A stretch of 64,000 nt of DNA from positions 3,648,001-3,712,000 of the forward strand of contig OY761158.1 in NCBI GenBank assembly GCA_963664405.1. Direction: 5' to 3'. The stretch is from Thermoanaerobaculia bacterium (GTDB lineage: Bacteria; Acidobacteriota; Thermoanaerobaculia; Multivoradales; Multivoraceae). Shown here piece by piece: positions 900 to 54,038 of this stretch. Position 1 is the stretch's first letter; the number at the start of each line of letters is the position of its first letter. The notes beneath the pieces were generated by a model that worked only from the letters and a program-made list of their open reading frames with translations, searched no databases and had not been told where the DNA came from. The position numbers were made by a program, and so were the translations under genes.

Positions 900-3241
900 A
901 TGGAAGCGACCGACGGCCGGACCCAGTGCCGGCGGGCGCGAGCAGTCCCGCGAGCCCTCTCCGGACTGCTCCTGATTCTAGCCACTCTTGTCGCTCTGCC
1001 GCCAGTCGCGGCTCAAGAGCCGGCGGAGTCACAAGAGCCCGAGATCACGGAGGGTTCCGAGGAGGAGCGGCAGCCGGAAGAAGAGACCGGTGAGGAAGCG
1101 CCGGTCGAGGAGATCCCGGTCGAGGATCGGCTGCGTTTCGAGGTGCCCTTCACCGATGAGTCGGGAGGAGGAACCGCGGTTGTTCTAGCCGAGGAGCTTG
1201 AGCTCGAGGGAGACGCCTACGTCCTCATCGGTCGGGTCGAGATCGAGTATCAGGACATCAAGCTGAAAGCCGATCGTGCAGAGCTCGACCGAAGTACCAA
1301 GATCGTTACGGCGATCGGAAACATCATCCTCGATCAAGGTCCCAGTCGGCTTGTCGGTGCGACCATGAGCTTCGACCTGGAGGAGAAGACCGGCAGACTG
1401 ACCGACGCAAGAGGCTTCGTTTCCGCCGACTATTTCTTCAGCGGCGCGGAGATCATCAAGACAGGAGAGAAGTCATTCACGGTCATCGACGGAATCTTCA
1501 CTTCGTGCGACCAGGACGTTCCGTCGTGGAGCTTTCGCACCGGCCGGACCGATCTGGTGGTGGATGGGTATGCCAAAACGCGCGGTGCCACCATGCGAGT
1601 GAAGAAGGCCCCGGTTCTGTATTTTCCCTATCTGTTGTGGCCGGTTAAGTCCGACCGCAGCTCCGGCATGCTGGTGCCCAAGCCCGGCTTCTCGGAACGA
1701 CGGGGCACGGCCCTGAGTCTGGCCTACTATCAGACTCTTGGACCCAGCTACGACACGACCGTCTATCTCGACCTCTTCAGTGAGGACTATCTAGGTATCG
1801 GTAACGAATTCCGCTACCAACCCACCGAAGCTACAGGTGGCAGATTCGACGGATATTGGATCCAGGATCCCGATCGAGGCGAAGACCGCTGGAGGACGCA
1901 GCTCACTCACGAAAGTCGAGACCTGCCGTGGGGTTTCGGGGCGTGATTCGTTACGACGACGTATCAGACTTCGATTACTTTCAGGACTTCGAGCGCAATG
2001 CCGATCGCCATGCCAAACGGGCACTGCACAGTAACGCGTTCCTGACCAAGAACTGGGGTCGGCAGTCGTTCAATTTTCTCGTGGATCAGCGCGAGACTTT
2101 CCTCCGTGACAACTCGACGGTCAGTCTTCGACAGATGCCTGAGGTCGAGTATCGCCTGCGGTCGACCCAGCTCCGCGACCTGCCCCTTTACCTCCAGCTC
2201 AACAGTGCGTTTCATTTCCTCGACGTAGACCGGCGCGAGAACTACAACGACTCCTATATGCGCGCCAACTTCGCGCCGAGGCTCACCTTTCCGTACCGTG
2301 CATTTCCTTGGCTCTCTTTCTCAGTCGACGCTGGAGCCGTCTTTACCTTTTGGGGTGACAGTCTTCGTGTCTCCGGCGACGAGCCCGATCCAGAAAGCGA
2401 TTCAGTCTTCCGCAGCGAAAGCCTGAGCCGGATCACACCGAGCATCTCCGGCGAGGCGGTCGGCCCTTCCTTCTCGCGTATTTTCGACCTCAATGGCAAG
2501 ACCTGGTCCAAACTCAAGCACATCATGGAGCCGCGCTTCAACTATGCCTTTGTCGATGAGTTCGACGAGGAAGATCGGATCCCGCGATTCGATGAGCTCG
2601 ACTCGATTCGAGGCGCGAACATCGGCCGCATGGCCTTTATCAATCGTCTGTTGGCGAAGCCGGCGGGTGAAGGTGGCGGTGGCTCGCGAGAGATCATGTC
2701 GGTGGAGATCTTCCGGCTCTACAGCTTTGATGACGATCGCTTCTTGCAGAGGTCTTCCGACGGAGAGAAGCAGTCCCACTTCGGCCCTCCGACTCTGCTC
2801 TTTCGTTACAATCCCACTCGCCAGACCACCTTTCGCAACGCGCTGAGGTTCAACACTCTCTTCGGCCGCATCGAGTCGTCCGCCACCTCGGGGAGCTTCG
2901 AGGCCGGCCCCCACCGCTTCGGTGTGCGGTGGACTGCCCGAATTCGACCCGACGACGGCATGACGCGGACCAATCAGTTTCGCGTCTCTTCGGATCTCAT
3001 CCTGATACCGCGTCGACTTCGTCTCATCTCGTCGGTCAACTTCGACGCCAACGACAGCCTTGTTCAGTTGCAGCGCCACATCCTCGAGTACAACGCCAAT
3101 TGCTGGGGCGTGCGACTGGAATTCGGCGAGTTCAAGCGCCGCGGCGGCCAGCAGACCGACCGCGAGTTCCGCTTTTCCATCAATCTCAAGAACGTCGGCA
3201 CCTTTCTCGACCTCACCGGCGGCGAGAGCTCTTCTCTCTAG
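900..3241 (+). CDS. lptD: LPS assembly protein LptD, split by a -1 frameshift near 1931-1946 (ORFs 900..1946 and 1856..3241)
   Basis: Signal peptide, OstA-like jellyroll (LKADRAELD, FTSCD..PSW, PVLYFPY, RSSGMLVP) in frame 1; beta-barrel C-terminus (KLKHIMEP, YNANCWG, FSINLKNVG) in frame 2; the joined reading is DLPWGFRGVIRYDD. Confidence 0.85.
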
Positions 3242-3405
3242 TGGACCGTAACACCCAAACGTTTAGCGCCTGAGCGGCCCTCGCGGCCGATCTCTGCGTT
3301 ACGCTTCCTCGACATAGTCCCCGCTATGCCTGCGTCAGCGCGCCTTGATCTCGACCCCGAATGACTCACTCAGCCACTAAACGTTCGAGTGTTACGGTCC
3401 ACTGG
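3238..3405 (+). repeat. Repeat family A copy 1 (MITE-like hairpin element)
   Basis: CTAGTGGACCGTAACAC ... GTGTTACGGTCCACTGG terminal inverted repeats; near-identical to 50195-50362; the left CTAG supplies the lptD stop. Confidence 0.9.
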
Positions 3406-3428
3406 TGAGCTCTGCTCTAAGGCAGTCG

Positions 3429-4286
3429 ATGCGTGCATTGATATTCGGTGGCGGCGGGCTCGTCGGCACCCCGCTCGGCCAGGAGCTGGCCAGTCGCGGT
3501 TATCGGTACCGATCGTTGACTCACGGCGACACCGACATCAGCGACGCAAAAGAGGTTCGCGCAGCGATCGAGAGCTACGAGCCCGAGGTCATCTTCAATT
3601 GCGCGGCGTTCACCCGCGTCGACGATTGTGAGACCCGGGAAGAGGAGGCGACAGAGGTCAACGGTCGGGCGCTGGGGCACCTGGTGTCGGCGGCTCGGTC
3701 TCTGTCGGCGAGCTTGGTGCATCTGTCGAGCGACTACGTTTTTGACGGTCGCGCCGAGTCGCCCTATCGGGAGGGAGACCCGACGGCGCCTCTATCGGCC
3801 TACGGCCGCGGCAAACAGGTTGGGGAGCAGGAGGCCCTGGTCTATGCTCGATCATTGGTGGTCCGAACGAGCTGGATCTTCGGCAGTGCCGGGCCGAGCT
3901 TTGTCAGGACCATCCTCGGCTTGCTCGATCGGCCAGCAACGCTGCGTATTGTCGACGACCAGGTCGGCGGGCCGACCTACGCTCCTTACCTTGCTCGCGC
4001 CCTGGTAGATCTCGTCGAAGCCGGGGTCACGGGCTTGGTTCACTACCGCAACCGGGATCCGGTCACCTGGTTCGAGTTTGCGCGTGCCATTGGCGCCAGG
4101 GTCGAGCCTGGGCATGAGATCCTGCCCACCACCAGTGCCGAGTTCGTCCAGCTCGCTCCCCGTCCGTCGTACTCGGTGCTGTCGGTCGAGCGCTTCGAGA
4201 AGGTGACCGGGAGAAGAGTCGAGGCCTGGAGCGACGGCCTTCGCGAGTGCCTGGCTGCGATCGGTGACAGGGCCGGAGCCTCATGA
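3429..4286 (+). CDS. rfbD: dTDP-4-dehydrorhamnose reductase
   Basis: NCAAFTRVD, SSDYVFDG, YGRGK, VDDQVGGPT, APRP motifs; start placed at ATG 3429. Confidence 0.9.
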   Translation: MRALIFGGGGLVGTPLGQELASRGYRYRSLTHGDTDISDAKEVRAAIESYEPEVIFNCAAFTRVDDCETREEEATEVNGRALGHLVSAARSLSASLVHLSSDYVFDGRAESPYREGDPTAPLSAYGRGKQVGEQEALVYARSLVVRTSWIFGSAGPSFVRTILGLLDRPATLRIVDDQVGGPTYAPYLARALVDLVEAGVTGLVHYRNRDPVTWFEFARAIGARVEPGHEILPTTSAEFVQLAPRPSYSVLSVERFEKVTGRRVEAWSDGLRECLAAIGDRAGAS

Positions 4287-5248
4287 AGGCTCTGGTTACC
4301 GGGATCACCGGGTTCGCCGGCTCGCATCTTGCGGACTATCTGCTCGAGAATCATCCAGATATCGCTGTCGCCGGCACCTATCGCTGGCGTAGTCGGATGG
4401 AGAATATTCGCGGGATTCGCGATCGCATCGAGCTCTATGAGGCGGATCTGCGCGACTACTCGTCGCTACAGAAGACGCTTGCAGCGCTGCGTCCGGACCT
4501 CATATTTCATCTGGCTGCCCAGAGCTTTGTTCCTTCGAGTTGGACTGGGCCGGCCGAGACCTTGAGCACCAATGTGCTCGGCCAGACGCATCTTTTCGAG
4601 GCGGTTCGAAGCTTGAACCTCGACCCCATCATTCAGATCGCGTGCTCGAGTGAAGAGTACGGTCTCGTACATCCCGACGAGATACCGATCTCGGAGGGCA
4701 ATCCCCTCCGCCCGCTGTCTCCCTATGCCGTGTCGAAGGTGGCCCAGGACTATCTCGGCTATCAGTATTTTCAAAGCTACGGCCTCAGAGTGGTTCGTAC
4801 GCGGGCCTTCAATCACACGGGTCCCCGCCGCGGAGAGGTCTTCGTTGCGTCCAACTTTGCGAGGCAGCTGGCGGAGATCGAGTCCGGAAAGGCAGAGGCG
4901 GTTCTGAGTGTCGGCAATCTAGACGCGGTCAGGGATTTTACCGACGTACGCGATGTCGCCCGTGCCTACTTTGCCGCGGCCATGCAGGGCGAGCCTGGCG
5001 AGGTCTACAACATCGCCAGCGGTCGGGGTACTACGATCCGCGAACTTCTCGATAGACTGATCGCGCTAGTGGATGTGGACGTCGAGGTACGCCCTGATCC
5101 CGAACGGTTACGACCTTCGGATGTCGAGATTCTTGTCGGAGACAGCACCAGGTTCCGTGATCGCACCGGCTGGGAGCCTGAGATTTCGCTGAACGAGACC
5201 TTGCGCGATCTCCTCGACTACTGGCGAGAAAGGCTGAAGACTCGTTGA
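4283..5248 (+). CDS. GDP-mannose 4,6-dehydratase / GDP-6-deoxy-hexulose reductase family NAD-dependent epimerase
   Basis: GITGFAGS, HLAAQSFV, SSEEYG, SPYAVSK, FNHTGP, RDFTDVRD. Confidence 0.85.
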   Translation: MKALVTGITGFAGSHLADYLLENHPDIAVAGTYRWRSRMENIRGIRDRIELYEADLRDYSSLQKTLAALRPDLIFHLAAQSFVPSSWTGPAETLSTNVLGQTHLFEAVRSLNLDPIIQIACSSEEYGLVHPDEIPISEGNPLRPLSPYAVSKVAQDYLGYQYFQSYGLRVVRTRAFNHTGPRRGEVFVASNFARQLAEIESGKAEAVLSVGNLDAVRDFTDVRDVARAYFAAAMQGEPGEVYNIASGRGTTIRELLDRLIALVDVDVEVRPDPERLRPSDVEILVGDSTRFRDRTGWEPEISLNETLRDLLDYWRERLKTR

Positions 5249-5736
5249 CGATCGGGAGCACTGAAGTGAAAGATCCGGCGCGGCTGCTTGCGTTCTACGA
5301 CCGGCTGCGCGACCAGGTCGCGACCCGGCTCGGAACCGGGGCGGGGGCCGGCGTCGCGGAGTACCTGCTGGTCGCGCCTGACCTCTTCATCCTCCTTGTT
5401 CGACTCTTCCTCGACCGCGACACTCCTCCGTCCAGTCGCGCACTAGTGGGCGGCGCCCTTGCGTATTTCTTGCTCCCGGTGGATCTCATGCCCGAGATGT
5501 TTCTCGGTGTCGGCGGCCTGCTCGACGACGTGATTCTCTCTGCCGCGGTGCTGACGCACGTATTCACCGACGAGCTGGAGCCGCTCGTCGCGCGGCACTG
5601 GAGCGGCTCCAGAAGGCTGAGGACAGTTCTCGAGGACGCCACTGGTGCCGCGGATGCTCTCCTCTCGACCTCAGTGCGTGGCCGCTTGGCGAGTGTTCTC
5701 GCCCGCTATGGCGTAGTGCTCGATCGGTCGGAGTGA
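5245..5736 (+). CDS. DUF1232 (YkvA-like) membrane protein
   Basis: ALAYFLLPVDLMPE...GLLDD motif. Confidence 0.75.
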   Translation: MTIGSTEVKDPARLLAFYDRLRDQVATRLGTGAGAGVAEYLLVAPDLFILLVRLFLDRDTPPSSRALVGGALAYFLLPVDLMPEMFLGVGGLLDDVILSAAVLTHVFTDELEPLVARHWSGSRRLRTVLEDATGAADALLSTSVRGRLASVLARYGVVLDRSE

Positions 5737-7498: not shown

Positions 7499-7515
7499 CA
7501 GGGCAGAGACAGATC

Positions 7516-18527: not shown

Positions 18528-18889
18528 TGCGGAACCTACGGAAGTGATGGCTATCACTTCCTCCGGTTCTGATTACACGGCGCCGAGGACGGCGCATCCG
18601 GACTCCGGAAGTGATGGCTATCACTTCCTCCGGTTCTGATTACACGGCGCCGAGGACGGCGCATCCGGACTCCGGAAGTGATGGCTATCACTTCCTCCGG
18701 TTCTGATTACACGGCGCCGAGGACGGCGCATCCGGACTCCGGAAGTGATGGCTATCATTTCCTCCGGTTCTGATTACACGGCGCCGAGGACGGCGCATTC
18801 GGACTCCGGAAGTGATCGCTATCATTTCCTCCGCTAGGCGCGCCCCGGCTTCTGTTTGGCGCCGAGGACGGCGCGTTGCGGAACCTACG
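18528..18889. repeat. 67 bp tandem array (4 full units plus a partial) of palindromic, REP-like units
   Basis: GGAAGTGAT recurs at 18540, 18607, 18674, 18741 and 18808; bracketed by direct TGCGGAACCTACG at 18528 and 18877. Confidence 0.92.
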
Positions 18890-19054: not shown

Positions 19055-21604
19055 ATGAATCCCAATAGCTCTGCCCGGCGCCGATACCTGCAGCTGGCCT
19101 CGCCGCTCGTGCTCTCGGTCGTGCTCCTGGCCGCCAGCCCACTCACCGCCGCGGGGCCGGCTACCGCGCGCTGGCCCGAAGAGCAGAGATTCTTTTTTGA
19201 TGATGGTCCCGGATGGCTGCTGTCCGATGATCAGCGCTCAGAGCTGATCGCGATGGATGAGGCCGATCGGCTGCCGTGGATGGACCGCTTCTTGGCCCAG
19301 GATCCTGTCGCCGACACCGAAGAGAACGAGCTGGCCACGGGCATCGGTCGGCGACGTCTCTTGATCTGGCAGGAGGGGCTCGTCACTTTTCTCGACGATC
19401 GTGCCAAGGTCCTTTTTCTCCACGGCGCGCCACTCGAGCGTGAGGTGATCGCTTGCGATCAAACCTTCGTGCCACTCGAGATCTGGCGTTACGGGCCCAA
19501 AGAGACGACCCCTGCGCTGATTCTGTACGAACCTCAGCCCGACTGGCCGTATCGCCTCTGGCTGCCCATGGACTCCAAACGCGTGCTCTACGGTCATGAG
19601 ATGGAGTACTGGCTCGAGCAGGTCGCCGAGCTGATCCAGAACGGGAGAGGGCCCCGTTTCGACAAGAGACTGTGTAAGCAGACCAAGGCTGTGGATTTGG
19701 CGACCGGCATCGAGGGCCTGTTTGGCTTCCGCGACAAGCGACCGACCAATACCCAGATTCTCAGCTGGGTCGAGGCGCCGGCGAGCTTGGCGGACTGGGC
19801 TTCGGAAGCAGTCCGTACTCCGCTCCCGGAGGGCCCCGGCTCTTTGGTCGTGGCAGCCCCAGAGGTGTACTTCCCAAAGAAGGAAGGTCAGCGTATGGTC
19901 GCTCGGATCCTTCTTCGCGTACCGGAGGAATCGGGCCTCGAGGTGCACGAGGACAACGAAAAGACCGAGCTGCGAATCAAGATCGATGGCATCGTCGAGC
20001 GAGAAGGCGAGCTCTTCGAGAACTTTCACATCCGCTTCCAGGTTCCGGTCGAGGACCGGCCTAGAGAGCTCGCTCTGTTGATGGACCGGCTGCTTCGGCC
20101 CGAGGACGAGTTTCTCATCCGTCTTCGTATTCGCGACGAGATCGGCGAGGCCGAGATTCACCGGGCGGTGGGCTTTCGGGTTCCAAGTGAAGCGCAGGCG
20201 GAGGAGGATCTGCCGAGCGACGTTGTCGTCGCCCACGGAGTGGACGTGGAGCCGGAGAGAGTTCCTGGCGTCGACAGTTTGGTGATCATTCCTCCCGAGA
20301 CCGATGTCGTTCTGGGTCTGTGGAGAGTGGAGACTCTGATCTCCGGGGAGAGCATTCAGAAGGTCATCTTCCTGCTCGACGGTAAGCCCCAGATGACTCG
20401 CGGCAAGCCACCGTTTCAGGCTGAGCTACGTCTCGGCAAGTATCCGACCGAGCACGTGGTCAGAGCCGAAGGCTATGACTCCGAAGGTGGGCTTATCGCC
20501 TCCGACGAGGTCGTACTCAACCAGCAGCGGGGCCAACTAGAGGTCGAGATCCTGGAACCGCGAAAGGGCGCTGTGCTCAGCGGCACCGTGAATGCGAGAG
20601 CCTCGGTCGTAGTGCCGGAGGAGGCCAATCTGACCCGAGTCGACTTCTTGGTCAATGATGCGGTCGTCGCGACTCTCGTGAAGCCGCCTTGGCAAGTCGA
20701 GATCGAAGTTCCCGAGCTGGCTCAGCGCGCGGACATCAGTTATCTGACGGTAGCGGCCTATCTCGACGATGGCACGCGCGCCGAGGACGTACGCTTCCTC
20801 AGCGCCCCCGAGTATCTCGAGCGGGTCGAGGTTGACCTGGTAGAGCTCTACACCACCGTCGAGGGAGACCGCTCGTTGTCACTCCAGCGAGAAGCCTTCT
20901 CTATCTTCGAAGACGGCCGCCCTCAGGAGATCGCCAAATTCGAGTTGGTCGAGGACTTGCCCATCACCGTGGGCATTACTATCGATACTTCGGGCTCGAT
21001 GATCGAATCGATCTCCGAGGCCAAGACGGCGGCCGTCGACTTCCTCGAGCGCATCATCACTCCCCGAGATCAGTCCTTCGCTGTGAGCTTCGCGAATCAT
21101 CCTCAGCTGTTGATGCATCGCACCTCCGATGTCGGCGCGGTCGAGACCGCGGTGTCGAGCCTCCACGCGGTTGGCAATACAGCGCTCTACGATGCGGTGG
21201 TCACCAGCCTTTACTATTTTCGTGGGGTTCGCGGCCGACGCGCATTGGTTCTCCTCTCTGACGGAGACGACACCAATAGCAACATTCCGTTCAAGGACTC
21301 CCTCGACTACGCGCGCCGCAGCGGGGTCGCGATCTACGCCATCGGGCTCAAGATCGGTGTTACCTCGATCGGCATCCGAGGCAAACTGAATGATCTGGCC
21401 GATGAGACCGGCGGCCGTGCGTACTTCATCTCCAAGGCTTCTGAGCTTCATAGTGTCTACGGTCAGATCGAGCGAGAGCTCCGTAGTCAGTATCTTCTAG
21501 CCTACTCTTCCGACGCGCCAACCGAGGCCGAGGAGTTCCGCACCGTCGAGGTCAAGGTCAAGGGAAAGCTCAAGGCGCGGACCATCAGTGGCTATTATCC
21601 CTAG
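19055..21604 (+). CDS. Exported GWxTD-like / Ig-like / VWA domain protein
   Basis: Signal peptide, DDRAKVLFLHGAP and EIWRY (GWxTD-like), Ig-like PPF/PPW repeats, MIDAS DTSGS, TALYDA, LSDGDD, ELRSQYLLAY. Confidence 0.85.
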   Translation: MNPNSSARRRYLQLASPLVLSVVLLAASPLTAAGPATARWPEEQRFFFDDGPGWLLSDDQRSELIAMDEADRLPWMDRFLAQDPVADTEENELATGIGRRRLLIWQEGLVTFLDDRAKVLFLHGAPLEREVIACDQTFVPLEIWRYGPKETTPALILYEPQPDWPYRLWLPMDSKRVLYGHEMEYWLEQVAELIQNGRGPRFDKRLCKQTKAVDLATGIEGLFGFRDKRPTNTQILSWVEAPASLADWASEAVRTPLPEGPGSLVVAAPEVYFPKKEGQRMVARILLRVPEESGLEVHEDNEKTELRIKIDGIVEREGELFENFHIRFQVPVEDRPRELALLMDRLLRPEDEFLIRLRIRDEIGEAEIHRAVGFRVPSEAQAEEDLPSDVVVAHGVDVEPERVPGVDSLVIIPPETDVVLGLWRVETLISGESIQKVIFLLDGKPQMTRGKPPFQAELRLGKYPTEHVVRAEGYDSEGGLIASDEVVLNQQRGQLEVEILEPRKGAVLSGTVNARASVVVPEEANLTRVDFLVNDAVVATLVKPPWQVEIEVPELAQRADISYLTVAAYLDDGTRAEDVRFLSAPEYLERVEVDLVELYTTVEGDRSLSLQREAFSIFEDGRPQEIAKFELVEDLPITVGITIDTSGSMIESISEAKTAAVDFLERIITPRDQSFAVSFANHPQLLMHRTSDVGAVETAVSSLHAVGNTALYDAVVTSLYYFRGVRGRRALVLLSDGDDTNSNIPFKDSLDYARRSGVAIYAIGLKIGVTSIGIRGKLNDLADETGGRAYFISKASELHSVYGQIERELRSQYLLAYSSDAPTEAEEFRTVEVKVKGKLKARTISGYYP

Positions 21605-22361
21605 CCTCAGAAAACGCGCCTTCGGCCCGTTTTCCGGCCCATCCCCGCCTGAGAACTACTCGCCTGTCCGAATTCTCGGACACGCTCCTAGCCCAAGACT
21701 CCGGCTGATTGGCCCGTTCTGCGGTCCATCTGCTCTGCTTTCGGTCTTGCTCCTACTGAGTGGGCCGTGGGCAAGTGGCGAGGAGTTCCACTTCCGGGGA
21801 CTGGACCGGACCTACAGCCAGTTCGCCGACGAGCTGGCCCCGATCGAGCTGGGAGTGGTCAAAGTGCTTCTGAAGTCTCCGGAGCACTCGATGACCCTCG
21901 AACGCCATCTTGTTCGCCTGGTGCCTGCCGAAGGCGACTCTCATAGGGTGAGCTTGGAGCTCGATCTGCACGGCAGCGGTACCCTCGACGCCCATCTCCA
22001 GGTCGGATCTCTAGCCGGTGATCTCGAGGATGAGCTGGTAGTGCCACCACAGAGCCTCCTGATCGGGGCGAGAGTCGAGATCCATCGCGTGCCCGAGGGG
22101 TTCAGGGTCACTCTCTTGGAAGGCCCCAAAGAGATAGAAGTGCGTATCGAGAGCCGGCTGGCGTCGCGCATCGTTCCTCTTTGCAGGCAGATGGCGCTGG
22201 TCCTCGTCCGCTTCGACTGTGGTGCCCTGGACGAGGCTCTGTCTCGGGTCCTAGTGCCGGTACCTCCGCCGGGGGAGCAGTTTCTGATCCCCCTCGAGGA
22301 GCTCACGGCCGCCGAGGTCTCGCAATTCGAGCACTATCTGCGTCGAGCGGCAGGACTCTAG
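21588..22361 (+). CDS. Hypothetical exported protein carrying an in-frame repeat-B insertion near its N-terminus
   Basis: ORF stays open through repeat B; signal-like SALLSVLLLLSGPWASG; ends at the CTAG of repeat A copy 2. Confidence 0.65.
   Translation: MAIIPSLRKRAFGPFSGPSPPENYSPVRILGHAPSPRLRLIGPFCGPSALLSVLLLLSGPWASGEEFHFRGLDRTYSQFADELAPIELGVVKVLLKSPEHSMTLERHLVRLVPAEGDSHRVSLELDLHGSGTLDAHLQVGSLAGDLEDELVVPPQSLLIGARVEIHRVPEGFRVTLLEGPKEIEVRIESRLASRIVPLCRQMALVLVRFDCGALDEALSRVLVPVPPPGEQFLIPLEELTAAEVSQFEHYLRRAAGL
21601..21691 (+). repeat. Repeat family B, intact copy (91 bp, CTAG...CTAG)
   Basis: Near-identical to 59392-59482 and to the reverse complement of 49421-49499 joined to 47932-47943. Confidence 0.92.
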
Positions 22362-22522
22362 ACCAGCGTTTCCAAAGTTCGCGCACATATCTCGGCCCCT
22401 TCTGCCCGCTGGCGGCGTTGCGCCTCCTCGACATATTGCCCAATATGCCTGCGTCTCCGCGCCTGGCCAACGAACAGAATGACCTCGAGCTATGTGCACG
22501 AACTTTGGAAACGCTGGTCTAG
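22358..22522 (+). repeat. Repeat family A copy 2
   Basis: CTAGACCAGCGTTTCCAAAGTTCG ... CGAACTTTGGAAACGCTGGTCTAG arms; core CCTCGACATATTGCCCAATATGCCTGCGTC. Confidence 0.88.
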
Positions 22523-39251: not shown

Positions 39252-39539
39252 ATGACAATTTCGATTCAGATACCTACCCCTCTACGCGGCTTCACCGGTG
39301 ATAACGGTGAGGTGAGTGTCGAGGGGTCCACGGTGGGCGAAGCGCTCCAAGGCCTGATCGCCAAGCACAGTGCGTTAGCGCCGCATCTCTATGGTGACGA
39401 TGGCAAGCTGCGTAGCTTCGTCAACGTCTTCCTCAACGACGAGGACGTTCGTTACATGGAGAAGGAAGATACTCCGGTCAAAGAGGGGGACTCGCTGTCG
39501 ATCATTCCTTCGATCGCCGGTGGAGGAGGTGCCAGATGA
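39252..39539 (+). CDS. Ubiquitin-like sulfur carrier (CysO/MoaD/ThiS family) with C-terminal extension
   Basis: IPTPLR, FVNVFLNDEDVR, IIPSIAGG followed by GGAR. Confidence 0.9.
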   Translation: MTISIQIPTPLRGFTGDNGEVSVEGSTVGEALQGLIAKHSALAPHLYGDDGKLRSFVNVFLNDEDVRYMEKEDTPVKEGDSLSIIPSIAGGGGAR

Positions 39540-40711
39540 CCTTGGTTCAGAACGACGAGACCGCGACCCTTCCCACCCTGACTCCACAGGAGATTCAGCG
39601 CTACAGCCGGCACCTGATCATGCCAGAGGTCGGAACCCTGGGCCAACAGAAGCTGAAGGCCGCCAAGGTGCTGATGGTCGGTACTGGAGGGCTCGGATCG
39701 CCCCTTGGCATGTACCTGGCGGCCGCCGGCGTCGGCACGATGGGATTGGTCGAGTTCGATACGGTCGAGGAATCCAACCTGCACCGTCAGCTTCTTTATG
39801 GGCTTGCCGACGTTGGTCGGCCGAAGATCGAAGCTGCGATGGAGAGGTTGAACGTGGTCAACCCGCACGTGAACCTGATTCCTCATCCGGTGCGTCTCGA
39901 GTCCTCCAACGCCTTGGACATCTTCAAGGACTACGACTTGGTGGTCGACGGTACGGACAACTTTCCTACCCGCTATCTGGTCAACGACGCCTGTGTGCTG
40001 CTCGGCAAGCCGAACGTCTACGGCTCGATCTTCCGTTTCGAGGGTCAGGCATCCGTCTTCTGGGCGGAGAAGGGCCCCTGCTACCGCTGCCTCTTCCCCG
40101 AGCCGCCTCCTCCAGGCCTCGTACCGTCCTGCGCCGAAGGTGGTGTGCTTGGGGTCCTGCCCGGGATCATCGGGTCGCTGCAGGCAAACGAGGTGATCAA
40201 GCTCATCATCGGCCAGGGCGAGCCGCTGATCGGGCGCCTCGTCCTCTTCGACGCACTGCGCATGAAGTTCCGAGAGCTCAAGCTCCGACGCAACCCGGAA
40301 TGCCCGGTGTGCTCCGAGAACGCGACCCAGACCGAGCTCATCGATTACGAGCAGTTCTGCGGCTTCACGCCAGAGGAAGAGTCTCTGGGCGACGACATCG
40401 ATATCACCGCCACCGAGACCCAGGAGCTGATCGACGGGGGCACGAAGGTCACCATCTTGGATGTGCGTAATCCTCCCGAGTATGAGATCTGCCGAATCGA
40501 GGGTTCGGTGCTGATTCCGTTGCCTGAGCTGCAGGACCGGCTTGGCGAGCTCGACCCGAGGGACTTCTACGTCGTTCACTGCCACCATGGACCGCGATCC
40601 ACGCGGGCGGTGAGTATGCTGCGCGACGTCGGCTTCGCCAAGACAAAGAACCTCGCGGGCGGAATCGATGCTTGGAGCCTGGAAGTGGATCCGGACGTCC
40701 CGCGCTACTAG
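39536..40711 (+). CDS. moeB: MoeB/ThiF adenylyltransferase-rhodanese fusion (MoeZ-like)
   Basis: RYSRH, GTGGLGSP, SNLHRQ, DGTDNF, CYRC, CPVC, rhodanese HCHHGPRS, GGIDAW. Confidence 0.94.
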   Translation: MTLVQNDETATLPTLTPQEIQRYSRHLIMPEVGTLGQQKLKAAKVLMVGTGGLGSPLGMYLAAAGVGTMGLVEFDTVEESNLHRQLLYGLADVGRPKIEAAMERLNVVNPHVNLIPHPVRLESSNALDIFKDYDLVVDGTDNFPTRYLVNDACVLLGKPNVYGSIFRFEGQASVFWAEKGPCYRCLFPEPPPPGLVPSCAEGGVLGVLPGIIGSLQANEVIKLIIGQGEPLIGRLVLFDALRMKFRELKLRRNPECPVCSENATQTELIDYEQFCGFTPEEESLGDDIDITATETQELIDGGTKVTILDVRNPPEYEICRIEGSVLIPLPELQDRLGELDPRDFYVVHCHHGPRSTRAVSMLRDVGFAKTKNLAGGIDAWSLEVDPDVPRY

Positions 40712-40879
40712 TGGGCCGTAACACCCAAACGATTAGCGCCTGAGCGGCCCTCGCGGCCGATCTCTGCGTTACGCTTCCTCGACATATTGCCCGATATGCC
40801 TGCGTCAGCGCGCCTTGATCTCGACCACGAATGACTCACTCAGCCACTAAACGTTCGAGTGTTCGGGACACGACACTAG
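40708..40879 (+). repeat. Repeat family A copy 3 (mismatched right arm)
   Basis: Body nearly identical to copies 1 and 5, but the right end is GTGTTCGGGACACGACACTAG; CTAG supplies the moeB stop. Confidence 0.88.
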
Positions 40880-47064: not shown

Positions 47065-47772
47065 GTGCTACGGGCGATCCTCTTTGGTTTCAGTGGTGTG
47101 CTTGTCGATGATCAGCCCCTCCACTTGGGTCTCTTCCGCCGGGTTCTTGCCGAGGACGACATAGAACTATCCGATGCGGAGTATTCAAAGCTCTACCAGA
47201 GTCGTGACGACAAGGACTTTCTCTCCGCGGTACTAAGAGGCAGGGGACAGCGCTTTGACGAGGCGCTGTTGATGCGGCTACTCACCCGCAAGGCGAGCTA
47301 CTTTCGGGAGCAGATCCGGGTTGAGGGCTTTCCTTTCTTTCAAGGAGCTCTCCAATTGGTGAGGAAGGCCGCCGAGGAGTCCTTCACTCTGGGTGTGGTT
47401 TCTCGCGCCCTGCGCGGTGAGATCGAGGCGGCGCTAGAGCAGCCGGCTGTCGGAGGCCTGTTCAAGGTCGTCGTCTCTGCCGAGGATGTGGAGGAGACGA
47501 AGCCGGACCCGGAAGCCTATCGCCGCGCCCTGAGCGATCTGAACAGCGTGCCTCCGCTCCCTTCCAGGCTTTATCACCCGCATGAGGTGCTTGCGGTCGA
47601 AAACAGCGTCTCGGGTCTCGCCGCCGCACGAGCGGCCGGCTTGGTGACGCTCGGCGTATCGCACAGCTCTTCGAGTGAGGGGCTCGCCGGCGCGGATCTG
47701 GTAGTCGGGGGCTTGGGTGAGGTCCGCCTCGACGTCCTGCAGCAACAGCTGGCCGAGGCTAGCCGGAGCTAG
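47065..47772 (+). CDS. HAD-family phosphatase-like protein (motif I aspartates absent)
   Basis: AILFGFSGVLVDD, KPDPEAY, ENS..G..AA..AG. Confidence 0.8.
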   Translation: MLRAILFGFSGVLVDDQPLHLGLFRRVLAEDDIELSDAEYSKLYQSRDDKDFLSAVLRGRGQRFDEALLMRLLTRKASYFREQIRVEGFPFFQGALQLVRKAAEESFTLGVVSRALRGEIEAALEQPAVGGLFKVVVSAEDVEETKPDPEAYRRALSDLNSVPPLPSRLYHPHEVLAVENSVSGLAAARAAGLVTLGVSHSSSSEGLAGADLVVGGLGEVRLDVLQQQLAEASRS

Positions 47773-47935
47773 TGTCCTGTATCAGTAGTTCGTCACACAA
47801 CTCGCTGGCCCTTTTGCGCGCTGCCGTCGTTGCTCCTCCTCGCAATATTGCCCAATATACCTTCGTCGTAGCGCCTTGGCAGCACCCAAAATGACTGCGC
47901 GATTTATGCAACGAACCACTGATACAGGACACTAG
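47769..47935 (+). repeat. Repeat family A copy 4
   Basis: CTAGTGTCCTGTATCAGT ... ACTGATACAGGACACTAG arms; core CCTCGCAATATTGCCCAATATACCTTCGTC; the right CTAG is shared with the split repeat B. Confidence 0.88.
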
Positions 47936-47962
47936 GAGCGTGTATCTGGACTCCAATGTCAA

Positions 47963-48290
47963 CAGGGGTGGGTCGGTCTTCTTGTTTTTGATAGAGGTTT
48001 CCTTGGTGTGTAATCACAGGCAGTATGGAGGTCGATGGTGAGTCAAGACAGCAGACGTATCTCCGGCCTGTAGTGGGCGATTATTAGCGCCGGGCCATGA
48101 TGAAGAAATGCGCGTGAGGGAGCCGAATCGTCCGAAAGGGCCTCGAAGGCCAACGCTCCTATCGGCTTTTCCCCCCACGCCAGTCTGACTGGAAACCATC
48201 AGAATTCTCTACTCGCGCTGTCGGAGTGTTTGTGAGTGTTCAATTTGAAGTCTTCGGGTGCGTTGGGGTCCAGAGATCGAGGCCAAGGGC
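47963..48290 (-). ncRNA. Putative bridge RNA / seekRNA of the IS1111-type element (ends approximate)
   Basis: Matches to target flanks (48202-48209, 48153-48161) and to IS ends (48097-48104, 48058-48062); position as in IS1111 elements. Confidence 0.7.
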
Positions 48291-49331
48291 TCAGGCCGTG
48301 ACTTGCCGTGGAGGCTGCAGCTGGAAGGAGGTCTCGTGGGTCCAGACCGCCCAGACAACGCGTGCGAGCTTGTTGGCGAGGGCAACGGCGGCCCGGTTCC
48401 GTCCCCGCGAGCTCTCGACTCTGAGGGCCCACTGTTCGAGCCTACCGGCGGGTCCCTTTCTCCTCGCCCAGCTGAGCACCGACCTGGCGCCATGAATGAG
48501 GAGAGTTCGTAAGTACGCGTCCCCGCGTTTGCTGATCCTGCCGAGCCACCGCCGAGCGCCACTGGAGTGTTCCCTGGGAGTCAGTCCGAGATAGCTGGCG
48601 AGATGCCGGCCGCTTTTGAAGCGGCGAATGTCTCCGATCCAAGCGACCATGGCTGTGGCCGTGAGTACGCCTACGCCCTTGATCGTCAGGAGTCGCTTCA
48701 CGGCCTCGTCCTGGCGCGCGAGGGCTTGGATCTGTGCCTCGAGCTCTTGGATCTTCGTGGTCAGCTCGTCGATGTGGTCACAGATGCTTTCGAAAAAGGG
48801 TCGCAAGACGAGCGGGATCTCGGTATCCGGATCCGCGAGCCAGACGCGGACGCGCGGCAGGACCTGGGCGCGTCCCTGGGGCAGAAAGAGCCCGAGCTCT
48901 CGTAGGTGCCCGCGCAGAGCATTGATGTGGGCGGTGCGATCGTCCATGAACGACGAACGGATGCGATGGAGCGTGGTCATCGTCTGCTGCTCGAGCGATT
49001 TGACCGGTACGGGTAGGATGTCCTCGTTTCGATGCGCCTCGAGCATGCCCGTGGTATCCGTTCGATCCGATTTATTGCGCAACACATAGCGCCGGGTGAA
49101 ATGCGGTGGCAGCAGGATCACCTCGTGGCCGAGACTCTGAATACGCCGGCCCCAGTAGTGCGCCGAACCGCAGGCTTCCATGAGGACGGTCGCGGGCTTG
49201 ATCTGCGCGAAGAACCTGAGGAATTTCGCCCTTCGCACGCGCTGCCTCTCGGCGACCTTACCCGGCTCGTAAGACACCGCGATCTCGAAGACATCCTTGG
49301 CGATATCGACTGCGATACGTGTACTCTTCAT
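48291..49331 (-). CDS. IS110-family DEDD recombinase/transposase
   Basis: AVDIAK, MEACG, NKSDRTD (DEDD), GVG..TA, YLGLTP..HSSG, ISKRGD.YLR.LL..GA, A.VALANKLAR. Confidence 0.95.
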   Translation of the reverse strand: MKSTRIAVDIAKDVFEIAVSYEPGKVAERQRVRRAKFLRFFAQIKPATVLMEACGSAHYWGRRIQSLGHEVILLPPHFTRRYVLRNKSDRTDTTGMLEAHRNEDILPVPVKSLEQQTMTTLHRIRSSFMDDRTAHINALRGHLRELGLFLPQGRAQVLPRVRVWLADPDTEIPLVLRPFFESICDHIDELTTKIQELEAQIQALARQDEAVKRLLTIKGVGVLTATAMVAWIGDIRRFKSGRHLASYLGLTPREHSSGARRWLGRISKRGDAYLRTLLIHGARSVLSWARRKGPAGRLEQWALRVESSRGRNRAAVALANKLARVVWAVWTHETSFQLQPPRQVTA

Positions 49332-49420
49332 CGTGGACTCCCTTTCTACGATCAACGTTTGCGACTTAGGTGACCCCTGGCACATAGATGCCGAAGTCAC
49401 CGGGGAGTCCATTTCATCAT

Positions 49421-49499
49421 CCGAGAATTCGGACAGGCGAGTAGTTCTTAGGCGGGGATGGGCCGGAGAACGGGCCGAAGGCGCGTTTTCTGGGGCTAG
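49421..49499 (-). repeat. Repeat family B, larger part of the IS-interrupted copy (remaining 12 bp at 47932-47943)
   Basis: Reverse complement matches the first 79 bp of 21601-21691. Confidence 0.92.
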
Positions 49500-50161: not shown

Positions 50162-50166
50162 TGCCT

Positions 50167-50194
50167 AGGACACGACGGCTATCGTGTCCTTCTT
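50167..50194 (+). terminator. Possible intrinsic terminator hairpin after tdk
   Basis: AGGACACGA-N6-TCGTGTCCT stem followed by only a weak T-tract (TCTT). Confidence 0.4.
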
Positions 50195-50362
50195 CTAGTG
50201 GACCGTAACACCCAAACGTTGAGCCCCTGAGCGGCCCTCGCGGCCGATCTCTGCGTTACGCTTCCTCGACATAGTCCCCGCTATGCCTGCGTCAGCGCGC
50301 CTTGATCTCGACCACGAATGACTCACTCAGCCACTAAACGTTCGAGTGTTACGGTCCACTAG
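50195..50362 (+). repeat. Repeat family A copy 5
   Basis: Perfect CTAGTGGACCGTAACAC / GTGTTACGGTCCACTAG ends; near-identical to 3238-3405. Confidence 0.92.
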
Positions 50363-50366
50363 TTCC

Positions 50367-51029
50367 TTACCTTCGTTCTAGGCATGTCTTGGAGATACTC
50401 GCCGAGAGTGCAGCTCGGAGAGGGGCCACGTCAGTCGAGGTGCCGAGGTCGTGGCCAACGCCGGGGATCGCCTCAATTACTACGGCCTTTCCCCAATTCG
50501 ACGCGGCCCCGCGCAAGACCTTTTCCGGAGTCAGATCGTCGTTCTCGCCGAAAATGACTGCGGTCGGCGCCGACTCGAGCTGCCAGGAGGCAGCGTCGTA
50601 ATGAGAAATGGGGGGTGCCAATAGAAGATGAGCATGGATCTCGAGATCGGCGGCTTGCTGCGTGCCTGCCAAGGTTGCGGTTACCACCGCACCGAAGGAA
50701 TAGCCGGCGAGGCAGAGCGGCAGGCCGGGGTTGCGTCGACGCAGCTCCGACGCGCTGACCAGGAGGTCGAAGCGTTCTCCGTTGCCGCTGTCGTGGCTGC
50801 CGGAGCTGTGCCCGACACCGCGGAAATTGAAGCGAAGGGTGGCGGCTCCGGCAGCCAGCAAGGCGCGCTCGGTCTCGAGCACTACTCGGTTCTGCATGTT
50901 GCCACCATAGAGGGGGTGAGGGTGCGAGATGACGGCACACAGCCGCGGGTCACCGCGTGGCAGTGCGAGCTCGGCCTCGAGGTCGCCGGCAGGTCCGCTG
51001 AGGGCGATAGGGTTGTGAACCGCCATCAA
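50367..51029 (-). CDS. Alpha/beta hydrolase
   Basis: HPHPLYGGNM, FNFRGVG, GYSFG. Confidence 0.88.
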   Translation of the reverse strand: MMAVHNPIALSGPAGDLEAELALPRGDPRLCAVISHPHPLYGGNMQNRVVLETERALLAAGAATLRFNFRGVGHSSGSHDSGNGERFDLLVSASELRRRNPGLPLCLAGYSFGAVVTATLAGTQQAADLEIHAHLLLAPPISHYDAASWQLESAPTAVIFGENDDLTPEKVLRGAASNWGKAVVIEAIPGVGHDLGTSTDVAPLRAALSASISKTCLERR

Positions 51030-51535
51030 GGAGCTGGAGAAGATCCCTCGATGAGGCGAAACGCCTTAGCCACGGCTTCCTTGGCGGACGCTGCCCGCGG
51101 GATCTCTCCGAGGCCTTGGCCGTCTGGTCCTTCAACGCTCCAGCTCTCGAGTAGAACCAGTGGGATCTGATACTTCATTGCCAGACCGATCTCCGAGAGA
51201 GTGCCCCATTCACCCCCAATGGCAATGACGGCGTTACTCGAGAGGACGATGACCTGGTTCCGCACCTGACCCATCCCGGTGTAAACGACGAAGTCCAGAT
51301 GAGGATTGGGTTTAGAGCTCTCCGGTCCGGTACCCGGAAAGATGCCGAGAGTCGTTCCGCCTGCTGTCTTGGCACCCGAGCAGGCGGCTTCCATGACGCC
51401 GGCGCCTCCGCCGCATACCAGCACGGCATCGAAGCGGGCCAGCTGCCGGCCGGCTTCGAAAGCGAGCTTGGTCGCCGCCTCTGAGCACCGCGTACCTCCG
51501 ACAATGCCGACTGTGCGGCGCCGTTGCTCGGTCAT
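51026..51535 (-). CDS. TIGR00725 / LOG-like Rossmann-fold protein
   Basis: CGGG.GVMEA, RNQV, GGEWGTLSE. Confidence 0.85.
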   Translation of the reverse strand: MTEQRRRTVGIVGGTRCSEAATKLAFEAGRQLARFDAVLVCGGGAGVMEAACSGAKTAGGTTLGIFPGTGPESSKPNPHLDFVVYTGMGQVRNQVIVLSSNAVIAIGGEWGTLSEIGLAMKYQIPLVLLESWSVEGPDGQGLGEIPRAASAKEAVAKAFRLIEGSSPAP

Positions 51536-51586
51536 CTGCGTGGTATCCTACCCCGTCCCGCCACTGGGAGAGACCCCCCTCAGGTA

Positions 51587-52186
51587 GTGCCTACGCCGCG
51601 GACAGACGAACCCCTCGTGCCTGCCAATCGTTCCGACGCAGATTTGGTCGCGCTCGTCGAGCAGCAGGACCAGGCCGCGCTGGCCCACCTCTATGAGAAA
51701 TTTTCCGGAGTTCTGTTGGCCCTGATCTCCGGGATTCTCGGCAGATCCGGAGATGCAGAGGAGGTGCTCCAAGAAGTGTTCATGCAAGCCTGGCGGCAGG
51801 CGGACCGCTACGACGCCTCGCGCTCCTCGGTGTCCAATTGGCTCTCTCTGATTGCGCGAAGCCGCGCCATCGATCGCCTACGAAGCCGGAACGTGATGCA
51901 GCGGACTGCAACGGCCGCCTACGCGGAAAAGCGCGATGACAATGCATCCCCTGAGGGCTCGCGGAACGTACTGTACTCGGAGAGAAGGACAAGGATTCGA
52001 GCCTCTCTCGCCGAGCTTCCGAAGGAGCAGGCCGAGGTTATCGAGCTGGCCTTCTTCAAAGGCATGACCCAGAGCGAGATTGCTGATTCGACCGGAATCC
52101 CGCTCGGAACCGTAAAGACTCGTACCTTGTTGGCAATGAAAAAGCTTCGTGTCGCACTACAATCCGAGCTGAGGGACCTCCTGTGA
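51587..52186 (+). CDS. ECF sigma factor (SigK-like)
   Basis: AEEVLQEVF..W, W...IARSRAIDRLR, LP.EQ..VIELAFF.G.TQSEIA...PLGTVKTR; start uncertain. Confidence 0.9.
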   Translation: MPTPRTDEPLVPANRSDADLVALVEQQDQAALAHLYEKFSGVLLALISGILGRSGDAEEVLQEVFMQAWRQADRYDASRSSVSNWLSLIARSRAIDRLRSRNVMQRTATAAYAEKRDDNASPEGSRNVLYSERRTRIRASLAELPKEQAEVIELAFFKGMTQSEIADSTGIPLGTVKTRTLLAMKKLRVALQSELRDLL

Positions 52187-53007
52187 GCGATCGAGAAGAC
52201 GCCATCCTGGAGCGAGTCCTGCGCCAGGTCGAGAACGGTGGTCTCGAGGACCCGACTCTGGATCTCGAAGTCGAGGATCGTGCTACCTGGCGTGAGCTCT
52301 CCGAGCTGGTGACTTTGCTGCCCTACGCCTTGGACCCGATCGAGCCAGATCCGGCGGTGAAGGCCTCGCTGATGTCACGCCTCGACGAGAACCGAGTCTC
52401 TGTCGATGAGCCTTCCGCAACTCTGCCCTTTCCAGCTCCAGCTCCCAACTCGATGCGCTCGTTGCAGTTTCTCGCGGCTGCTCTCGGCGTTCTTGCTCTC
52501 GGCCTCGCGCTTCTATCAGGATGGATGTTCCGCGGTAGCCAGCTCCGCGAAGACACGATCTCTCGTCTGAACGCCGCGCTGATTGCTAGTAGCCGGCAGC
52601 AGGTGGAGCTTGGCCCCACTTATGAGCAGCTGGGAGCCATGCGCTCGGTGGTGACATCTTCGGGCATGAGTATCTGCCCGCTTCGCCCGTGGGGCGACAG
52701 CCCGGCGCAGCCGATCGCCCGCGGCGTCATGTACTTTGATGGCGCTAAGCAAAGGTGGCTGTTGACGGCGCGAGGGCTAGAGCCTTGCGACAAGGGCTCC
52801 AAATATGCGCTGTGGTTCATGGTCGGCGAGAAGGCTGTGCGCGGAGGTAGTTTCGAGGTTGAACCGAACCTCGCGGTCACTCTTGGCGCCGATCAGATGC
52901 CCGAAGGCACCACGGCTGTTCTGCTCACCCTCGAGGCCGATGCCGACGCGCCGGAGCCCACCGGCCCCAGGATCCTCTTCGGCGACGAGACCGAAGAGAT
53001 GCTCTGA
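52183..53007 (+). CDS. Anti-sigma factor (RskA-like)
   Basis: Coupled to the sigma gene; central TM; YALW...GSF...LTLE....PTGP C-terminus. Confidence 0.82.
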   Translation: MSDREDAILERVLRQVENGGLEDPTLDLEVEDRATWRELSELVTLLPYALDPIEPDPAVKASLMSRLDENRVSVDEPSATLPFPAPAPNSMRSLQFLAAALGVLALGLALLSGWMFRGSQLREDTISRLNAALIASSRQQVELGPTYEQLGAMRSVVTSSGMSICPLRPWGDSPAQPIARGVMYFDGAKQRWLLTARGLEPCDKGSKYALWFMVGEKAVRGGSFEVEPNLAVTLGADQMPEGTTAVLLTLEADADAPEPTGPRILFGDETEEML

Positions 53008-53181
53008 TCGATCCGGCGGGGGCTCGGATCACTTCCGAGGGCGGCGCGATAGACTGCTTCCTCTTGGGCGCTCGGTCTTCGCCGATCCTGCGGGTCGGAA
53101 TGTGGATCTTGTTCGAGTTGTTTCCATAAGTAACGGGTTCTCGGCGAAGAGCGAACCGAGAAGCTTTTGAAAGGTGTGTCG

Positions 53182-53874
53182 ATGTTCTATTTCGATCCGA
53201 TCTACTTCGTCGTCTTGGCGCCGGCCATGTTGTTCTCTCTTTGGGCCAGCTACCGAACCAAATCGGCGTTCACCAAGTACTCCAAGGTCCGTGCTACGAG
53301 CGGCCTGACCGGTGCCGAGGCGGCTCGGCGACTCCTCGCCTCGGCTGGCATAAACGATGTCGAGATCGTGCGCACCGCTGGAACGCTTTCGGATCACTAC
53401 AACCCCGCCACCAAGAAGCTGGCCCTTTCAGATTCCGTTTACAGCCAGCCCTCGATTGCGGCGATCGGCGTTGCCTGCCACGAGGCGGGGCATGCCATTC
53501 AGCACGCGAAACACTATGCCCCGCTGTGGGCTCGCTCAGTGCTCGTCCCTAGTGCCGGCATCGGCTCCAAGCTGGGCTATATCGTCATGTTTCTCGGCCT
53601 GATTCTCCAGATCACGCCGCTCTTTTTGGTGGGCGTCGGTCTCTTCTCGCTGGTTCTCCTCTTCCAGCTGGTGACTCTTCCGGTGGAATTCGACGCTTCG
53701 GCACGAGCCAAGAGCCTCGCTTTTTCACAGGGGCTGATCCTCGAGAACGAGCGCGCTGGCGTGGCGAAGGTGCTCAACGCGGCGGCCCTCACCTACGTCG
53801 CCGCGGTGGTGACCTCGCTGCTGACCCTTCTCTACTACCTGATGCGGTCTGGGCTCCTCGGCGGCCGCCGATAA
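53182..53874 (+). CDS. Membrane zinc metallopeptidase (Zn_peptidase_2 / YugP-like)
   Basis: LSDHYNP, HEAGHAIQH, TLPVEFDAS, AAALTYV. Confidence 0.92.
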   Translation: MFYFDPIYFVVLAPAMLFSLWASYRTKSAFTKYSKVRATSGLTGAEAARRLLASAGINDVEIVRTAGTLSDHYNPATKKLALSDSVYSQPSIAAIGVACHEAGHAIQHAKHYAPLWARSVLVPSAGIGSKLGYIVMFLGLILQITPLFLVGVGLFSLVLLFQLVTLPVEFDASARAKSLAFSQGLILENERAGVAKVLNAAALTYVAAVVTSLLTLLYYLMRSGLLGGRR

Positions 53875-54038
53875 GGTGCCGTGTCTCCGACATGGCTTAC
53901 CAATATCTCGGCCCCTTTTGCCCGCTGCCGTCGTCGCGACTCGTCGACATATTCCCAATATGCCTGCCTCGTCGCTCCTTGACAGCGAACAAAATGACCT
54001 CGAGCTCTTGGCAAGCCATGTCGGAGACACGGCACTAG
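53873..54038 (+). repeat. Repeat family A copy 6
   Basis: GTGCCGTGTCTCCGACATGGCTT ... AAGCCATGTCGGAGACACGGCACTAG arms; core TCGACATATTCCCAATATGCCTGCCTC. Confidence 0.86.

Follow-up and report, generated by a model that had tools for sequence, protein, structure and literature searches.

A dispersed, CTAG-bounded hairpin repeat of Thermoanaerobaculia with covarying stems around a conserved centre

[quoted passage not shown] For most bacterial hairpin repeats, the mover and the selection acting on them are unknown. Here, we analyzed a 64-kb stretch of a Thermoanaerobaculia bacterium genome (contig OY761158.1, positions 3,648,001 to 3,712,000; hereafter the window, in whose own coordinates positions are given), which carries hairpin repeats, designated family A, at six positions. 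Family A gives an unusually clean signal, namely a conserved centre, covarying stems, fixed loops, wobble pairs favoured on one strand and an exact palindromic target on stop codons. It resembles the proteobacterial elements in size, single-hairpin fold and gene adjacency; those elements, however, are defined by their conserved terminal repeats, and to our knowledge a conserved centre with covarying stems and a one-strand wobble bias is not part of their description. They share no sequence similarity with family A, and searches of Rfam, plasmid and phage collections were empty. The most fitting classification for family A is that of a new hairpin MITE variant, specific to one bacterial lineage, and not that of an RNA of the 3′-untranslated regions (3′-UTRs) of plus strand genes.

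Correia/NEMIS, ERIC and YPAL are tabulated among repeat families in PMC3184786, which portrays bcr1 of the Bacillus cereus group (about 155 bp) as a small, non-coding, dispersed and lineage-restricted repeat with mobile-element features, whose fold is kept by compensatory changes. Family A is likewise small, non-coding and dispersed, with features of a mobile element, confined among the matches listed to one lineage and kept in its fold by compensatory changes. Nevertheless, bcr1 is depicted in that source as a two-stem, cruciform-like RNA flanked by 5-bp direct repeats, whereas family A, known here from DNA alone, is a single long CTAG-bounded hairpin with variable arms around a conserved centre. 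The REP repeats, as presented in PMC8266576 and PMC3733652, are hairpins acted on as single-stranded DNA (ssDNA) and carry a GTAG tetranucleotide at the stem base. REP/REPIN repeats with their RAYT (TnpA-REP) thus resemble family A as hairpin repeats with a conserved tetranucleotide at the stem base, but REP units span 20–40 nt, and the tetranucleotide of family A is CTAG and stands on both sides. No REP-type unit was found, nor a RAYT among the open reading frames (ORFs) of the window or at L009, one of the related loci described below. Among insertion sequences (ISs), the IS5 target is YTAR. A CTAG-centred target is a feature common to family A and the IS481, IS630 and IS5 families, and IS481-type ends start with TGTG (PMC2516522; IS630 as cited in PMC2170065). 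The strand-specific structural constraint seen in family A is not a feature of those families, and no transposase gene is associated with family A in the window or at the at least 14 related loci listed. At the level of titles and abstracts, no specific description of an acidobacterial CTAG hairpin MITE was found in the literature.

The six window copies, of 165–172 nt and alignable over their full length, are as follows.

Positions 3238–3405, minus strand: 168 nt, 3238 subfamily, between LptD-like and RmlD-like genes; left CTAG (3238–3241) contains the TAG stop of ORF 1856–3241, right end degenerate (CTGG, 3402–3405).
Positions 22358–22522, minus strand: 165 nt, own subfamily, CTAG at both ends; left CTAG contains the stop of ORF 21588–22361.
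Positions 40708–40879, minus strand: 172 nt, 3238 subfamily; left CTAG contains the stop of the ThiF/rhodanese gene 39536–40711.
Positions 47769–47935, minus strand: 167 nt, own subfamily; left CTAG contains the stop of the HAD hydrolase gene 47065–47772, right CTAG (47932–47935) is shared with a family B repeat in inverted orientation, which an IS110 element divides in two.
Positions 50195–50362, minus strand: 168 nt, 3238 subfamily (97.6% identity); between the convergent genes for thymidine kinase (plus strand, ends 50161) and a hydrolase (minus strand, ends 50367).
Positions 53873–54038, minus strand: 166 nt, the exemplar copy, own subfamily, left end AAGG (53873–53876); between the convergent genes for a Zn-peptidase (plus strand, TAA stop 53872–53874) and phosphoglucomutase (minus strand, ends 54062).

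A degenerate core pattern matched only these six sites in the 64 kb, with 0 expected from 100 shuffles, and the covariance model recovered exactly six copies with the minus strand as the best match (141–160 bits) and plus-strand echoes of 40–50 bits; a repeat finder also grouped the six. Positions, pattern and covariance model thus agree with the original prediction, made from the sequence alone, of six mostly CTAG-bounded copies of this size. Three copies at unrelated loci constitute the 3238 subfamily, with identities to the 3238 copy of 88% for 40708 and 97.6% for 50195, and the remaining three (22358, 47769 and 53873) carry arms different from the 3238 type.

By scanning a species-representative genome collection with the core pattern, at least 14 loci (L001–L014) from six assemblies were obtained, and all of these at least 14 loci among the matches listed lie in metagenome-assembled genomes (MAGs) of Acidobacteriota/Thermoanaerobaculia. 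In total, 21 copies were analyzed, including the six of the window, 14 from the scanned loci and one extra in L001 found by the covariance model, which sort into approximately ten subfamilies with 88–100% identity within a subfamily. At least eight copies with 95–100% identity occur in one short-read MAG, and six of these are cut by contig ends, as expected because repeats break short-read assembly. Two window subfamilies recur at different loci in assembly CAXWPL01: the 53873 copy is 95.8% identical to L001:1430–1595 (minus strand) and the 22358 copy 91.5% identical to L001:1071–1236 (plus strand), these two L001 copies of different subfamilies being placed 194 nt apart in inverted orientation between divergent genes. 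The occurrence of nearly the same sequence at unrelated places, in several genomes from a single lineage, is the hallmark of a mobile repeat, and shows family A to be dispersed and multiplying within genomes of one Acidobacteriota lineage. It has the small size, terminal inverted repeats and many dispersed near-identical copies of a MITE, and its copies are hairpin throughout and without evident coding capacity, although no search aimed at conserved ORFs was made. Family A is also a practical problem in annotating Thermoanaerobaculia MAGs, since it breaks assemblies and creates false ORFs, such as the spurious 127-codon ORF at L001:1050–1430, which runs through the 1071–1236 copy.

Searches against described families gave no counterpart. 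The 64-kb window had 0 Rfam matches at the gathering threshold, and an Rfam search by E-value around two copies found at best RF02662, a Bacillus antisense RNA, at a chance-level 21.6 bits versus 61 (E = 0.12), with no match around the 22358 copy. The exemplar copy had no match in plasmid and phage collections by distant blastn. A candidate TniB/IstB-like transposition ATPase, encoded by the AAA_22 ORF adjacent to the L005 copy, was rejected, the protein being a homologue of the PEP-CTERM-system ATPase.

Each family A copy forms one long interrupted hairpin, and in every complete copy the ends are TG...CA and the arms complementary. In the alignment of the 21 copies, which was fitted to the covariance model and is hence biased toward the structure, standard pairs make up 95.7% of 796 cells, cells that do not count as independent events given that the 21 copies represent approximately ten subfamilies. 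Both-side changes were observed in 29 of the 41 consensus pairs, none of 500 column shuffles reached any of five structure measures, and pairing fell to 31–43% when the partner was slid by 1–3 columns. An independent MAFFT/RNAalifold run found 28 of the 41 pairs to be compensatory, and folding of the minus and plus strands gave z-scores of −14.2 and −10.7, respectively. In the exemplar copy, the two innermost features are placed as below.

Positions 53907–54004, minus strand: conserved core, running CUCGAGGUCAUU ... GGGGCCGAG, with covarying helices and fixed purine-rich internal loops.
Positions 53946–53964, minus strand: terminal hairpin, GCAUAUU-GGG-AAUAUGU.

The fixed internal-loop bases of the centre are AAGG opposite RACG and GAnGnAGG opposite CGAsGA, the latter compatible with tandem G·A pairs. 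Among the A-U-A/U-A-U pairs of the terminal hairpin, two are invariant in 21/21 copies and the third in 20/21, and the loop-adjacent pair covaries (GC in 10, UA in 9). The claims that paired segments change together while unpaired bulge bases stay fixed, and that a structurally constrained module is present, are therefore confirmed in the 21 copies, with covariation far above the shuffled and slid controls.

The constraint was found to be strand-specific. The minus strand (window coordinates) folds better in all six window copies and is the more stable one in 15/15 complete copies, with mean folding energies of −102 versus −76 kcal/mol for the plus strand using RNA parameters and −52 versus −41 using DNA parameters. 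Read on the minus strand, the 41 consensus pairs contain 87 G:U cells versus 9 A:C cells, the latter being G:U on the opposite strand; for whole elements the numbers are 92 and 24, and G:U exceeds A:C in 14/14 copies. The lower minus-strand energy is thus due to wobble pairs sitting on this strand, and the bias is independent of how copies face neighbouring genes. We judge an approximately tenfold bias to be likely beyond the reach of strand-biased mutation. Based on the one-strand wobble tolerance, the covarying stems and the fixed loop bases, we infer that selection appears to act on family A in the form of one strand, of minus polarity, either ssDNA or RNA. In 6/6 window copies, this better-folding strand is antisense to the upstream plus strand gene.

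To describe regional conservation, the mean column majority over ten subfamily representatives was calculated.

CTAGTG/CACTAG termini: 0.85–0.90.
Arm interiors: 0.59–0.68.
Centre: 0.85.

Family A had been proposed to reverse the usual pattern of a MITE, in which ends are conserved and the middle drifts; this is right for the conserved centre and the drifting arm interiors, but the extreme termini are conserved equally with the centre. Between subfamilies, the arms are from 0.18 to 0.91 identical. Of the four outer repeats said to be unrelated, only the 3238/L009-type arms stand at near-background identity to the others (29–45%), whereas those of the 22358, 47769 and 53873 copies are 49–52% identical to one another. 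The suggestion that arms are swappable also stands in part: the L008 group is a clear arm/core mosaic, with a centre 0.83 identical to 3238 and 0.64 to 53873 and arms 0.38 identical to 3238 and 0.66 to 53873, but it is the only clear mosaic subfamily, and the arms are partly related. Since swapping the contiguous central hairpin tract alters both sides of the inner stem at once, a single conversion explains this mosaic. In the 40708 copy, one outer arm (TGTCGTGTCCCGAAC, minus strand) is unmatched to its partner arm and resembles other subfamilies, and this copy has the lowest folding energy among the six window copies; it is possibly a recombinant or decayed copy. A short CTAG-flanked hairpin at 50165–50194 (GGACACGA ... 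TCGTGTCC, then TTCTT), between the thymidine kinase stop and the 50195 copy, has a stem similar to this odd outer arm, and could be a terminator or the remnant of another element.

At the ends of family A, CTAG was found at 10 of the 12 positions in the window (exceptions CTGG 3402–3405 and AAGG 53873–53876). In the covariance-model alignment, it is present at all 19 observed 5′ ends except one mismatch (CCAG). Of the 17 observed 3′ ends, 15 carry it; the 53873 copy has a degenerate CCTT instead, and at L009 an IS200 element interrupts the end. The ends read CTAG-TG...CA-CTAG, with TG and CA directly abutting CTAG in every copy, and the bases beyond CTAG are unlike on the two sides (e.g. L008, L014 and 50195). 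The different IS-like ends that had been suggested find no support: every subfamily has the same termini, a sign of one shared target and probably of a single mobilising activity.

The left CTAG contains the TAG stop of the upstream plus strand gene in four of the six window copies (3238, 22358, 40708 and 47769), just as predicted. TAG is the stop of 23 of the 59 called window genes, which is unusually common for a 61% G+C genome, and 12 of these stops occur as C-TAG. CTAG itself is depleted in the window (90 observed, against expectations of 222 by base composition and 124 by a Markov model), and approximately 18 of the 90 are ends of family A or of a second repeat, family B. Six of the 12 CTAG stop codons are occupied, four by a family A copy and two by a family B copy, and none of the approximately 55 intragenic CTAGs in the window is occupied. 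Insertion at the palindrome CTAG would yield CTAG-TG...CA-CTAG; insertions within genes would be purged by selection, and copies would build up exactly on stop codons because the intragenic ones are removed, the flanking CTAG regenerating the stop. As CTAG flanks the element on both sides, insertion in either orientation preserves the stop codon. The stop-codon association would accordingly be a by-product of the CTAG target, which coincides with C-TAG stops, and not a sign of 3′-UTR function.

Family B is about 91 nt long and CTAG-bounded, has no terminal inverted repeats and contains two different internal hairpins; it has no Rfam match. Its window copies, and the IS110 element within one of them, are listed here.

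Positions 21601–21691, 59392–59482 and 63864 to about 63950 (diverged): family B copies.
Positions 47932–47942 and 49420–49499: inverted family B copy, split by the IS110 element.
Positions 47943–49419: IS110-family element of 1477 bp inside the inverted family B copy; transposase 48291–49412, minus strand.

Two family B copies lie on the CTAG stop codons of the genes 19055–21604 and 63007–63867. The IS110 element has only 7 nt before its ATG and, beyond the gene, about 348 non-coding nt, a layout that we take to be that of the IS1111-like subgroup targeting repeats.

All six window copies share one orientation and each follows a plus strand gene, two of them (50195 and 53873) between convergent genes; the covariance-model strand and the gene map bear the original prediction out on this point. 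At the other loci, where neighbouring genes were assigned by Pfam scans because gene calling from third-position G+C (GC3) was too noisy, the orientation is mixed. It is as in the window at L003 (trpA), L010 (cofE operon) and L014, and opposite at L006 (surE), L008 (short-chain dehydrogenase), L011 and L013 (macB); L012 lies between convergent genes, each of which ends on one of the two CTAGs, and the L004 and L005 copies are upstream of gene starts. Sense 3′-UTR placement is therefore not a property of the family, and the predicted fixed orientation to transcription fails with these loci and with the inverted L001 pair.

Taken together, family A probably represents a lineage-specific, non-coding and non-autonomous MITE-like hairpin of about 166 nt that targets CTAG in Thermoanaerobaculia-type Acidobacteriota and whose centre is selected in single-stranded form. 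Such an element would be mobilised in trans, and its centre would most likely be a cis-acting structure required for its own propagation. The arm interiors would be under complementarity constraint alone; because only complementarity must be kept, they could drift and be exchanged between subfamilies through conversion of the central tract. As for the mobiliser, we tentatively favour a single-strand (HUH/Y1-like) mechanism; a DDE transposase (IS481-, IS630- or IS5-like) is possible at slightly lower weight, a function at the RNA level appears unlikely, and the little that is left falls to other mechanisms. Wobble pairs are most at home in RNA, but an RNA-level role would require transcription of the minus strand. 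Family A makes it testable whether such a repeat propagates via a single-stranded intermediate and which enzyme recognises it.

Several observations, besides the dependence among alignment cells mentioned above, weigh against this explanation. No autonomous partner with the same termini occurs in the window or at the at least 14 loci listed, and the window transposases comprise the IS110 one alone, whose element interrupts a family B repeat. Perfect terminal inverted repeats with TG...CA ends have a DDE-like look, whereas the ends of IS200/IS605 elements are not inverted and carry two separate subterminal hairpins, a layout that family A does not share. The CTAG on both sides fits equally a 4-bp duplication, a TA duplication within CTAG, or insertion 3′ of CTAG of an element that brings its own CTAG. 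At L009, an in-frame TAG persists in a symporter gene once the insert is taken out together with one CTAG. Finally, IS608-type elements show a lagging-template bias. In the window, whose G+C content is approximately 61%, the cumulative GC skew increases and approximately 46 of the 59 called genes are on the plus strand; skew and gene direction suggest that the plus strand is the leading strand, so the 6/6 minus polarity is opposite in sign to that bias.

A first alternative is an ordinary double-strand cut-and-paste MITE of a CTAG-preferring DDE transposase (IS481-, IS630- or IS5-like), with the hairpin arising as a by-product of its two inverted ends and the centre as a hitch-hiking remnant. 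It would account for inverted repeats that start with TG, end with CA and directly abut CTAG, and for a size and intergenic distribution typical of MITEs. An IS481-family element with TGTG... ends and an NCTAGN duplication is reported in PMC2516522, and the preference of IS630 for TA within CTAG appears in the title of Tenzen & Ohtsubo 1991 as cited in PMC2170065. However, double-stranded recognition cannot account for 87 G:U versus 9 A:C cells and leaves the whole-stem covariation unexplained, as well as the higher conservation of the centre relative to the subterminal arms, the expected binding site of a transposase. No partner IS with matching ends was found in the window or at the at least 14 loci listed. 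The 6-bp NCTAGN duplication of an IS481-type MITE was rejected because TG/CA abut CTAG and the outer bases differ between the two sides. This makes the account doubtful, although it survives better than those that follow.

A second, somewhat weaker candidate, and on balance an unlikely one, is a REPIN/PATE-like ssDNA element moved by a Y1 (HUH) transposase cleaving at CTAG, in which the hairpin would juxtapose the CTAG junctions at the stem base. It would explain the whole-stem covariation, the conserved mismatches and the strand bias, and is favoured by the strand asymmetry also seen with DNA energy parameters (15/15), the conserved mismatched loops and the single orientation of the six window copies. 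Further support comes from family B, which is CTAG-bounded without inverted ends, and from one locus in the same clade.

L009, positions 1628–2275: IS200-type element, inserted exactly 3′ of CTAG; tnpA 1731–2159, minus strand (NF033573), with matching subterminal hairpins.

This element lies exactly between a flanking CTAG and a family A terminus, so CTAG-directed Y1 transposition seems to exist in the Thermoanaerobaculia clade; together with family B, it gives a hint of a CTAG-specific single-strand mobiliser there. On the other hand, its Y1 protein, the single one encountered, is of IS200 type, and the element has the classical two-hairpin layout, with end hairpins unrelated to family A and no sequence in common with it. 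Assignment of this protein as a RAYT was rejected, as it scores 142 bits with the IS200 model (cut-off 55) and 41.5 bits with the REP-associated model (cut-off 80). No Y1 gene was found among the window ORFs, the architecture of family A differs from IS200/IS605 and REP doublets, the two L001 copies stand in opposite orientation 194 nt apart, and the window's orientation bias has the wrong sign for IS608. An IS200/IS605-derived PATE was rejected, family A being one continuous hairpin with inverted ends, though CTAG always lies 5′ of family A, which is compatible with a PATE-like insertion 3′ of a tetranucleotide without duplication. Both the IS200 element and the L009 family A copy are inside a sodium:dicarboxylate symporter pseudogene with two further in-frame stops; as the gene already had other stops, the locus is no proof of clean insertion into a working gene, and with the TAG left after single-CTAG reconstruction it was dropped as a clean test of duplication models.

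According to a third explanation, which we regard as improbable, family A would be a host-serving structured 3′-UTR RNA that is transcribed with the upstream gene, acts as a stabiliser, processing site or terminator, and spreads by its usefulness. All six window copies do follow a plus strand gene, four of them touching its stop codon, both strands fold far better than shuffles, and covarying stems with conserved loops are as in functional RNAs; repeats such as bcr1 are transcribed, with RNA structure kept by compensatory changes, in the account of PMC3184786. In every one of the six window copies, however, the G:U-bearing strand runs antisense to the upstream gene. At the other loci, copies face the stop-codon gene in either direction, and two (L004 and L005) lie upstream of gene starts; no T-run follows the hairpin in any of the six window copies, and no Rfam family matches. 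Hence the predicted fixed role as a 3′-UTR RNA of the plus strand gene finds no support, as the G:U-rich, lower-energy strand is the antisense one. The ssDNA recognition module offered as the other option in the same prediction is still a candidate reading.

Slightly less probable still is that the mobilising machinery reads the conserved centre and not the ends, family A being a structured single-stranded module cut at stem-paired CTAGs. The fixed purine-rich loops and the fixed AUA/UAU hairpin would then be recognised, the long stem would set the distance of the CTAG pair, and the arms would be free to diverge and swap, through a new HUH- or nuclease-driven single-strand mechanism or, less likely, an RNA-templated one.

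An integron attC-type or other site-specific recombinase target, which imperfect hairpins at gene 3′ ends in one orientation and arms conserving structure more than sequence might bring to mind, is effectively refuted by flanks of housekeeping genes over 50 kb (LptD, RmlD, ThiF, thymidine kinase, phosphoglucomutase, cox and arg operons), the absence of an integrase among the 61 window ORFs scanned, a stem base of CTAGTG in place of the attC R-box consensus and a length above the attC size range.

The window genes are those of an ordinary chromosome, including LptD, the rhamnose pathway, cytochrome oxidase and bc-type genes, arginine biosynthesis and polyphosphate kinase, as well as ThiF/MoaE-type, thymidine kinase and phosphoglucomutase genes. 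A tandem repeat with a 67-nt unit (18539–18833; 4.4 copies, 98% matching) begins where the cytochrome oxidase cluster ends, just 3′ of the DUF420 gene.

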